Source: a virus. Taken from it: a DNA stretch of 13,150 nt. The position numbers were made by a program, and so were the translations under genes. Below the pieces are notes generated by a model that saw nothing but the letters and a program-made list of their open reading frames with translations, ran no database searches and was not told the origin of the DNA. Where the stretch lies: the IMG/VR virus record IMGVR_UViG_3300013101_003214, one strand, 5' to 3'. Each line of letters begins with the position of its first letter. Within the stretch, counting starts at the first letter, position 1. Shown here one piece after another: positions 7,665-8,002 of this stretch.

Positions 7665-7691
7665 TTGACCCACTATATTCTGTGGTACAAT
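7665..7691 (+). promoter_or_regulatory. promoter for the tRNA array: -35 TTGACC (7665-7670), 15-nt spacer, extended -10 TGgTACAAT (7683-7691)
   Basis: Only AT-rich stretch between the minus-strand gene block and the first tRNA-like gene (7705). The extended -10 TG motif compensates for the short spacer. Confidence 0.5.
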
Positions 7692-7704
7692 AGGGTCACC
7701 TTAT

Positions 7705-7777
7705 GCGGGGACAGCTCCTGGTGGAGCAGGACGGCTCATAACCCTCCGTTGGTGTGGTTCAAATCCCACTCCCGCTA
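7705..7777 (+). tRNA. degenerate tRNA-Met-like element (anticodon loop CTCATAA, CAT at 7737-7739); probably a pseudo-tRNA or leader
   Basis: Acceptor pairs only 6 bp (gcgggg/tcccgc). T-stem is 4 bp with an 8-nt loop (ggTTCAAATCc). Anticodon stem gacgg/ccctc has a C.C mismatch. Confidence 0.3.
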
Positions 7778-8002
7778 CTACGAGAACGACGATGAGACGC
7801 AGCTTACATACCTCAACAGCGACGAAGCCAGCCCCGAGTATCCTCGGCGGTCTGGAATCGTGCGTGCGCTTTGGGGATATGTTGGTCTGCTCGTATTCCC
7901 CCATTAGCCTCGAGCAGACCTGGAATCATAAAGAGGCGGCTACTCGGTAGAACCAAACAAAAACACCGAGAGCCGCCCAGGGAAACCTCGGGCGGTTTTT
8001 TT
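7778..8002 (+). ncRNA. structured non-coding leader between the first tRNA-like gene and tRNA-Tyr: 10-bp hairpin, then an anti-terminator-like hairpin overlapping an intrinsic terminator
   Basis: GGTCTGCTCG (7884-7893) / CGAGCAGACC (7911-7920). GGCGGCT...CTCGG / CCGAG AGCCGCC (7935-7977) shares CCGCC with the terminator stem. No ORF with a plausible start. Confidence 0.35.
7973..8002 (+). terminator. rho-independent terminator inside the tRNA array
   Basis: CCGCCC (7973-7978) / GGGCGG (7990-7995) stem, extendable to about 9 bp, followed by TTTTTTT (7996-8002). Confidence 0.65.

Follow-up and report, generated by a model that had tools for sequence, protein, structure and literature searches.

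Large phages carry near-complete sets of tRNA genes and, to our knowledge, essentially nothing has been established about how the arrays that hold these genes are transcribed and dosed. A 13,150-bp metagenome contig of an uncultured phage (IMG/VR record IMGVR_UViG_3300013101_003214; its full length is called the window in the following) raises this question in a concrete form. In a divergent intergenic region, at the head of a plus-strand array of 36 tRNA genes, lies a unit of about 300 nt in which a promoter-like site, a tRNA-Met-like gene and a structured stretch are followed by a terminator, and 35 of the tRNA genes lie beyond that terminator (Table 1). Does this terminator close off the first gene, or does it control what follows? 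We lean slightly towards the second answer: a conserved transcription unit, the terminator of which is handicapped by an overlapping hairpin (H3), and which meters the array.

Read in this way, the sigma-70-like promoter would start transcription about 5 nt before an initiator-type tRNA-Met(CAU), after which a non-coding 3' extension of about 220 nt would be transcribed that holds three hairpins (H1, H2 and H3) and ends in an intrinsic terminator. H3 would be made first, its base would serve as the 5' arm (CCGCC) of the terminator, and the terminator would have to displace it; because H3 forms first and must be displaced, termination is predicted to be incomplete, which would make the element an attenuating terminator. 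The first tRNA and the hairpin RNA would then be produced in excess, transcription into the 35 downstream tRNA genes would be metered, and the hairpins would probably also act as processing or stabilising structures.

The core of the argument is the overlap between H3 and the terminator. The 3' base of H3 (7972/3-7977, CCGCC) is at the same time the 5' arm of the terminator, the stem base of which consists of six G:C pairs and is directly adjoined by the U-tract; it is the only convincing combination of a hairpin and a T-run (six or more) on the plus strand of the window, and it was missed by the stock terminator scanner on account of its bulge. An earlier, sequence-only reading of the locus had described a canonical terminator with seven U (7973-8002), which is present, and upstream of it a 12-bp hairpin (7935-7977), which is likewise present and shares CCGCC as described, with a stem of 13 bp that includes one bulged A. 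Full H3 (-23.2 kcal/mol) and the combination of upper H3 with the terminator (-24.9 kcal/mol) are nearly iso-energetic, 1.7 kcal/mol apart, and as long as the 3' arm of the terminator has not been transcribed, H3 is predicted to form with a probability of 0.99 or more. For transcripts ending at 7995/7996, the predicted probability of the H3 base pair is 0.17-0.97 and that of the full terminator 0.001-0.26, depending on the length of upstream RNA included. Capture of the terminator 5' arm amounted to 0.41 in the real sequence, versus a mean of 0.011 when the 89 nt upstream were dinucleotide-shuffled, and 0.25% of the shuffles reached the real value; the mutually exclusive hairpins that the sequence-only reading had pointed out are therefore not a chance by-product of GC-rich sequence. 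The locus thus contains an alternative hairpin of comparable stability that is predicted to form first and that shares an arm with the terminator, which supports the competing-hairpin architecture. A bidirectional terminator was considered and ruled out, the minus-strand T-run being located 9 nt from the hairpin.

The conservation of the unit was judged from two sequences, the window and a single relative. The latter (ENA ERZ23498674, 14.7 kb; L018 in the following) was reached by a protein search with a 52-codon open reading frame (ORF) that runs through the stretch: among 1.84 billion representatives one 52-aa protein was found (79% identity), the other matches being short and to repetitive proteins. 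Other searches yielded no second relative: INPHARED (megablast and blastn) gave generic tRNA matches only, IMG/VR gave none with three proteins and four DNA patterns as queries, scans of metagenomes and genomes with leader and tRNA patterns returned nothing or distant carriers of tRNA-Tyr only, and a two-sequence leader profile (nhmmer) recovered no further homologue among the collected loci. In L018 the tRNAs occur in the same order (Met-like, Tyr, Lys-UUU, Gln-CUG, Phe, Lys-CUU, Asp), and the arrays are 82-92% identical, spacers included. The homologous block at the head begins close to the predicted +1 and stops where the U-tract ends (window 7699-8002, L018 9907-10212, 84.7% identity), and is flanked on both sides by unrelated sequence in L018, with a different gene upstream. 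Within the block the segments GGCGGC, GCCGCC(C) and GGGCGG are invariant, so that the overlap is kept; the upper H3 stem re-forms in another register, its loop has diverged, and the terminator (GCCGCCC..GGGCGGC plus T6, a stem of 7+3 bp, -20.1 kcal/mol) is intact. The conservation of the arms is of a weak kind, namely invariance in two sequences and not covariation, and the competition itself is weaker in L018 (capture 0.168, a value reached by 3% of shuffles).

The entire stretch that follows the tRNA and ends in the terminator is strongly structured. Its minimum free energy (MFE) is -88 kcal/mol (z = -4.64; -4.8 with independent shuffles), where four coding controls gave z-scores of -1.2 to +1.3 and other spacers of -0.8 to -2.7, and the L018 leader reached z = -4.17; its earlier description as a roughly 220-nt non-coding stretch is supported (for the coding tests see below). 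RNAalifold, which had been suggested as a check, returned a consensus of 22 pairs for H1 over 7811-7876 (66 nt; 7811-14:7873-76, 7818-21:7867-70, 7822-24:7863-65, 7828-31:7852-55, 7832-33:7849-50 and 7834-38:7843-47), and the upstream hairpin H3 does form in the predictions. One of the 44 paired positions of H1 differs in L018 (C:G to U·G), and differences are found at positions in its internal loops, bulges and apical loop. H2, noted before as a perfect 10-bp hairpin (7884-7920), was found as described; its stems are identical in L018 and several of its 17 loop positions differ, while its 5' arm falls in an invariant block of 36 nt (about 7861-7897; window versus L018 leader: TGCGTGCGCTTTGGGGATATGTTGGTCTGCTCGTAT). 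Over the complete leader the substitutions avoid pairs: 11 of the 103 paired positions have changed, as compared to 34 of the 117 unpaired ones (Fisher p = 0.0008), and most of the paired differences represent register shifts in upper H3 and the upper terminator, both of which re-form in L018.

A search of Rfam 15 over 7780-8005 and the homologous part of L018 gave nothing near a gathering score, and a T-box, a riboswitch, Y RNA/YrlA, GOLLD/ROOL, a piece of tmRNA and RNase P were rejected for lack of an Rfam signal. RcsR1, a Sinorhizobium small RNA, scored 16-17 bits (gathering score 60, E about 0.6-1.1; window 7877-8001, L018 10086-10212, plus strand), which most likely reflects a generic similarity of hairpin plus terminator. 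The direct repeat CTGGAATC, which had been placed at 7851/7918, exists at 7852-7859 and 7920-7927; it was rejected as a functional element, as chance alone would give about 0.4 repeats of this kind per 230 nt (our estimate) and the first copy is not kept in L018.

The tRNA-Met-like sequence had been read as a degenerate gene 14 nt past the -10 hexamer with the loop CTCATAA. The sequence is there (G7705 is the 14th base past the hexamer); the qualification as degenerate is probably not right, to judge from the comparison with L018. It is true that the sequence was called neither by ARAGORN at its default setting nor by Rfam at the gathering score (best tRNA-clan score 24.4 bits, tRNA-Sec model, below threshold), and that ARAGORN calls it only at a threshold of 90% or lower. 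The 6-bp acceptor of the sequence-only reading was recovered, with one G·U among the six pairs, a U1·U72 mismatch and A73, whereas its 4-bp T-stem is one of two possible drawings: in the one, 4 bp enclose a loop of 8 nt, and in the other, U7755 is bulged, which gives 5 bp and the canonical loop TTCAAAT. The anticodon loop is CUCAUAA, the T-loop UUCAAAU, and position 29:41 holds a C·C mismatch. The nearest phage sequences are annotated tRNA-Met genes. All three stem differences between the window and L018 keep the pairing and with it the cloverleaf: G7754:C7767 in the T-stem is A:U in L018, a double compensatory change, and G7710·U7770 to G:C and A7731:U7745 to G·U are one-sided changes that keep the pair. 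The U1·U72 mismatch, the CAU anticodon and the C·C at 29:41 are the same in both, and the 3' end reads A-CUA in the window (CCA not encoded) versus an encoded A73-CCA in L018. With respect to the initiator determinants, the CAU anticodon, a non-Watson-Crick 1:72 and A73 were found; the three G:C pairs 29-31:39-41 were not (two G:C pairs and then C·C, in both phages), and neither was A11:U24, position 11:24 being C:G in the D-stem GCUC/GAGC with the numbering inferred. Because its stems change compensatorily, L018 encodes A73-CCA, the 1:72 mismatch is kept and the set for 20 amino acids is completed, the sequence is probably a working, non-canonical initiator-type tRNA and not a decayed copy. 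A decayed tRNA copy inside the leader itself was ruled out, no tRNA-clan match being found in 7780-8005. Since the tRNA-Met looks functional, the 220 nt can equally well be regarded as its 3' extension and as a leader of the array.

The candidate promoter TTGACC-15-TGgTACAAT is present as described and ranks as the best sigma-70-like site of the whole window on both strands (10/12 plus TG in a wider scan); it directly precedes the tRNA-Met-like gene and is the only match to this pattern in the window. The hexamers are separated by 15 nt and TTGACC and TG by 12 nt; the stock promoter scanner, which requires a spacer of 16-18 nt, misses the site. Transcription is predicted to start at about 7698-7699, some 5 nt upstream of the tRNA. 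At the same place L018 has TTGCCA-18-AATAAT, the end of which is 10 nt away from the tRNA, although the sequence around it is unrelated. The region also holds a minus-strand promoter candidate (GTGACC-16-TATAGT, 7699-7672) that overlaps the plus-strand promoter, and an inverted repeat TGACCC/GGGTCA (7666-7671/7693-7698) brackets both; the divergently encoded 82-aa orphan protein shows a weak helix-turn-helix match (phrog_7170, E = 0.0055), and the repeat could be an operator for this protein.

If the unit is to meter the array, the tRNA genes beyond the terminator should depend on read-through. In promoter scans the Tyr, Lys, Gln, Phe and Trp tRNAs (8010-8595) showed no recognisable promoter of their own, and because no comparable promoter precedes them, some read-through would be needed at least for Tyr through Trp. 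Several observations nevertheless weigh against metering. At 84.7% the leader is not more conserved than the remainder of the array, and none of H1, H2, H3 and the terminator shows covariation (two sequences, with invariant competing arms). Three of the 69 pairs are G·U and the rest Watson-Crick, so that the hairpins would form on the other strand or in DNA as well; because nearly all pairs are Watson-Crick, the strand was assigned from the U-tract and from the direction in which the tRNA lies. The 15-nt spacer of the candidate promoter is sub-optimal.

The remaining objections bear directly on an alternative that we consider unlikely, and that takes the unit as a self-contained gene for a tRNA and a small structured RNA with an efficient terminator, the array being transcribed from internal or phage-specific promoters and the overlap stabilising the 3' end or being incidental. 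The terminator of L018 contains one more G:C pair and is predicted to prevail clearly at equilibrium (0.97-0.99), so that leakiness may not be a conserved property. A weak promoter-like site is found at the homologous place before tRNA-Lys(CUU) in both phages (window 8737-8765, TTGGCC-17-AATTAT; L018 11966-11994, TTGGCT-17-TATTAT; plus strand) and may act as an internal promoter, which would make part of the array independent of read-through. A self-contained gene would further be in line with the conserved block coinciding exactly with the stretch from the predicted +1 to the U-tract, with the 139-aa ORF that is inserted between this block and tRNA-Tyr in L018, and with the other hairpin-plus-UUUU elements that punctuate the array (see below). 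On the other hand, tRNA-Tyr follows the T-run after 7 nt in the window, the tRNAs up to 8595 would be left without a recognisable promoter, the folding predictions for the window let the terminator lose the competition at the point of decision, and the overlap is unlikely to have arisen by chance; these points count against a self-contained gene.

The 139-aa ORF is one of two CxxC-rich ORFs (134 and 139 aa; L018 9545-9949 and 10289-10708, plus strand) that bracket the unit of tRNA-Met and hairpins in L018. They are absent from the window, have no Pfam match, and their reading frames extend into the 5' parts of the tRNA-Met-like gene and tRNA-Tyr; they look like inserted genes of the homing-endonuclease type.

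The sequence-only reading had gone further and proposed an attenuator in front of the array. Overlapping hairpins do precede the array; no sensor was found, and in L018 the terminator is predicted to win, as described. Conditional switching by the hairpins is hypothetical, and the form in which it was considered is a trp/his-type attenuator, in which a ribosome on the 52-codon ORF decides between H3 and the terminator: at the stop codon (7948-7950) it would cover the 5' arm of H3 and cause termination, whereas a ribosome stalled upstream for lack of charged tRNAs would leave H3 intact and switch the tRNA set on. We regard this as distinctly improbable. Next to the overlap of anti-terminator and terminator, it can draw on the ORF itself, the start, length and stop position of which are kept in L018 (TAG is replaced by TAA), which contains no indel relative to L018 (indels occur just outside it), and the stop codon of which lies, in either phage, within the 5' arm of H3. 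A candidate long-range helix (P0), comparable to the 1:2 helix of such attenuators, occurs in the MFE structures of both phages, and the lack of amino-acid selection (pN/pS, the ratio of non-synonymous to synonymous changes, is 0.80) would fit a leader peptide. Yet the Shine-Dalgarno (SD) sequence is weak in both phages (neighbouring genes in the window have one of the AGGAG type); a run of regulatory codons is missing from the ORF, which at 52 codons is also long for a leader peptide; with a probability of 0.38 it would have stayed open by luck; H1 and H2 (-37 and -17 kcal/mol) would have to be melted by the ribosome; P0 is weakly supported, with 7 contiguous bp in L018 but, in the window, 3+3 bp interrupted by a 2x2 mismatch, without compensation; and no other sensor, whether T-box or riboswitch, was matched in Rfam.

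A more specific form of this idea, which we hold to be very unlikely, makes the unit a sensor of translation status that gates the complete phage tRNA set via the ORF, in which all 20 amino acids occur. Host ribosomes that reach its stop codon would let the terminator form and keep the array off, and stalling, when host tRNAs are scarce or cleaved by anti-phage nucleases, would let H3 form, upon which the 35 phage tRNAs would be transcribed.

There is a very slim chance indeed that the unit has no function of its own, in which case the tRNA duplicates another and is in decay, the hairpins are inverted repeats left behind, for example, by the traffic of mobile elements or homing endonucleases, and their apparent conservation merely reflects the general identity of 85%. 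The identity of the leader equals the background of the array, the tRNA scores below standard thresholds, endonuclease-type genes occur in the array and CxxC-rich ORFs flank the unit in L018, and the hairpins are strand-symmetric, all of which would fit such remnants. Against it count substitutions that avoid stems, a compensatory change in the T-stem of a tRNA of which the CCA is encoded in L018, z-scores far beyond the controls in both phages, and a terminator that is intact in both.

Finally, the chance is slimmest that a genuine protein of 52 aa is made from the ORF and that the hairpins merely happen to form in its mRNA: an ATG ORF of equal length is called as a gene in L018 (79% amino-acid identity) and the indels fall outside it and not within, but 36% of random placements have a pN/pS as low, the changes spread evenly over the codon positions (8/7/10), the 36-nt block lacks any change, synonymous ones included, which points to constraint at the level of nucleotides rather than protein, the codon score lies below 98% of windows from real genes, the GC content of first codon positions is lower than that of second positions, the SD is weak, and neither Pfam nor PHROG gave a match. 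The ORF is thus probably not a conserved protein gene, and may conceivably be a leader for which translation as such counts and the product does not. The metering terminator remains our preferred reading.

Table 1. Position of the elements of the array-head unit and of the neighbouring genes in the window.
Feature	Position	Strand	Remarks
Sigma-70-like promoter	7665-7691	+	-35 TTGACC 7665-7670, TG 7683-7684, -10 TACAAT 7686-7691
tRNA-Met(CAU), non-canonical, initiator-type (probable)	7704-7778	+	ARAGORN at 90% threshold
Linker	7779-7810	+	Purine-rich, mostly single-stranded; contains AUG 7792
52-codon ORF, ATG to TAG	7792-7950	+	Spans H1 and H2; stop inside H3 5' arm
Candidate long-range helix P0	7798-7805 with 7931-7938	+	In MFE structures of both phages
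H1, long imperfect hairpin	7806-7882	+	-36.8 kcal/mol in window, -34.3 kcal/mol in L018
H2	7884-7893/7911-7920	+	Perfect 10-bp stem, 17-nt loop; -16.9 kcal/mol
H3, candidate anti-terminator	7935-7977	+	13 bp, bulged A7942, 16-nt A-rich loop; -23.2 kcal/mol
Intrinsic terminator	7972/3-7995	+	9-bp GC-rich stem, bulged C7989, GAAA tetraloop, T7 7996-8002; -17.4 to -20.3 kcal/mol
tRNA-Tyr(GUA)	8010-8093	+	Encoded CCA; first gene past terminator, 7 nt after T-run; missed by default ARAGORN
tRNA-Trp	8524-8595	+	ARAGORN 90% threshold only
PD-(D/E)XK endonuclease-type gene	8890-9306		Within array
tRNA-Ala	10104-10173	+	ARAGORN 90% threshold only
tRNA-Val	10918-10990	+	ARAGORN 90% threshold only
tRNA-Ile	10997-11070	+	ARAGORN 90% threshold only
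tRNA-Arg	12692-12771	+	ARAGORN 90% threshold only
tRNA-Arg	12769-12839	+	ARAGORN 90% threshold only
82-aa orphan gene	7351-7599	-	Strong SD; left neighbour of the unit
Major-vault-protein homologue	4636-7293	-	Full-length, 885 aa; Pfam MVP_shoulder 4.6e-21
Further left-side genes		-	Cpn10, tmRNA, HNH endonuclease, thymidylate kinase

We then compared the unit with known systems. In the Escherichia coli operon metY-nusA-infB, promoters are followed by the initiator tRNA gene metY as the first gene, RNase III sites, the terminators t1 and t2, and the downstream genes (PMC6511841, citing Regnier & Grunberg-Manago 1989), and RNase III cuts the metY tRNA out of a longer RNA that runs on into the region downstream (PMC6511841). 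By analogy, the head of this operon would be the closest known architecture: promoters directly precede an initiator tRNA that comes first and is linked to downstream RNA, structured RNA and intrinsic terminators lie between the tRNA and downstream genes related to translation, and read-through would be metered. The phage unit differs in that some 35 tRNAs lie downstream instead of rimP, nusA and infB, in the absence of sequence similarity, and in that it alone has a specific hairpin overlapping the terminator. H1, with its 22 conserved pairs, would be a plausible substrate of RNase III.

The attenuators trpL, hisL and pheL likewise have an upstream hairpin that shares an arm with the terminator, and a short leader ORF. 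The phage unit resembles them in the shared arm, in the ORF that ends in the 5' arm of the anti-terminator and in a possible 1:2 helix, and differs from them in the length of the ORF, its weak SD, the missing run of regulatory codons and the two stable hairpins that it crosses; moreover, it precedes tRNAs and not a biosynthetic operon, and the translation of its ORF is putative. T-boxes control genes for aminoacyl-tRNA synthetases and amino-acid genes in Firmicutes and Actinobacteria, and with these (RF00230) the unit would share a decision between anti-terminator and terminator that is tied to tRNA supply, and the theme of translation capacity; unlike them, it has no Rfam match even at E up to 10, no T-box sequence, no specifier loop and no Stem I architecture. 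The tRNA cluster of phage T4 includes the stable non-tRNA RNAs species 1 and 2 (rnaC/rnaD), which are co-transcribed with the tRNAs and released from these transcripts by processing; here too a phage tRNA cluster encodes a structured non-tRNA RNA, the sequences are unrelated to the element in the window, and we know of no overlapping pair of anti-terminator and terminator in the T4 RNAs.

As regards the tRNA itself, we compared it with E. coli tRNA-fMet, a comparison that gives a lead and not a test. The phage tRNA presumably matches it at acceptor positions 2-7, in the anticodon loop, at CCC 39-41 and in the T-loop; shared features would be CAU in CUCAUAA, a non-Watson-Crick 1:72, G2:C71, C3:G70, A73 and the UUCAAAU T-loop. 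The differences comprise U1·U72 versus C1·A72, the C·C at 29:41 with two of the three G:C pairs, C11:G24 versus A11:U24, and, for the phage tRNA, a gap of three nt that separates the D stem from the acceptor stem, a T-stem with a bulged U, and a sub-threshold detection score.

The array was underestimated by the standard tRNA finders, which miss about a quarter of its genes. At the 90% threshold ARAGORN adds eight tRNAs including the tRNA-Met-like one, all of them on the plus strand and in gaps of the array, and with these every one of the 20 amino acids is represented and a second CAU tRNA heads the array. The tRNA-Tyr, which is called at the default threshold in L018, is 94-96% identical to sequences in three JGI contigs (L012 1497-1581, L013 1025-1107 and L014 2361-2443). 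These contigs, one of which is 196 kb long, look AT-richer in the stretch read, and their other tRNAs are 71-89% identical to those of the window, which suggests exchange or unusual conservation of tRNA-Tyr among large phages. Two further plus-strand elements of hairpin plus UUUU were noted: one (8424-8447; 91.7% identical in L018) ends at the 5' end of tRNA-Phe (8448), and the other (9423-9537; multi-branched, with a 9-bp closing stem, z = -3.2) ends at the tRNA that starts at 9538. Hairpins that resemble terminators or serve in processing thus seem to punctuate the array.

On the left side of the unit the genes are encoded on the minus strand. No homologues were found for the 82-aa neighbour, and the homologues of an endolysin-like gene occur in unrelated contexts that are free of tRNAs. 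The homologue of the major vault protein (MVP) is of the eukaryotic and myxobacterial type, here in a phage-like contig, with a best non-self match of 42% identity; the nearest phage copies are those of the huge phages LR756500 and LR756501 (36-38% identity), in which no tRNAs are found near the MVP gene. The gene order from MVP to Cpn10 is kept in a related JGI contig (Ga0209976_10000122, L015), which shows no synteny on the side of the tRNA array. The tmRNA (2277-2605, minus strand; tag peptide ANDNIVAAPLAVAA; Rfam 115 bits) adjoins the HNH endonuclease gene, and two strong minus-strand terminators are located near it (1886-1881 and 1676-1671).

The unit can thus be read as a terminator-based valve in a tRNA operon, made of a structured RNA without a match in Rfam. 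Such a design would serve to set the ratio of initiator to elongator tRNA, or to switch the array on. Its significance would rise sharply if read-through depends on translation or tRNA status, and if the unit did sense translation through its ORF, it would be the first known case of viral tRNA genes under the control of an attenuator.

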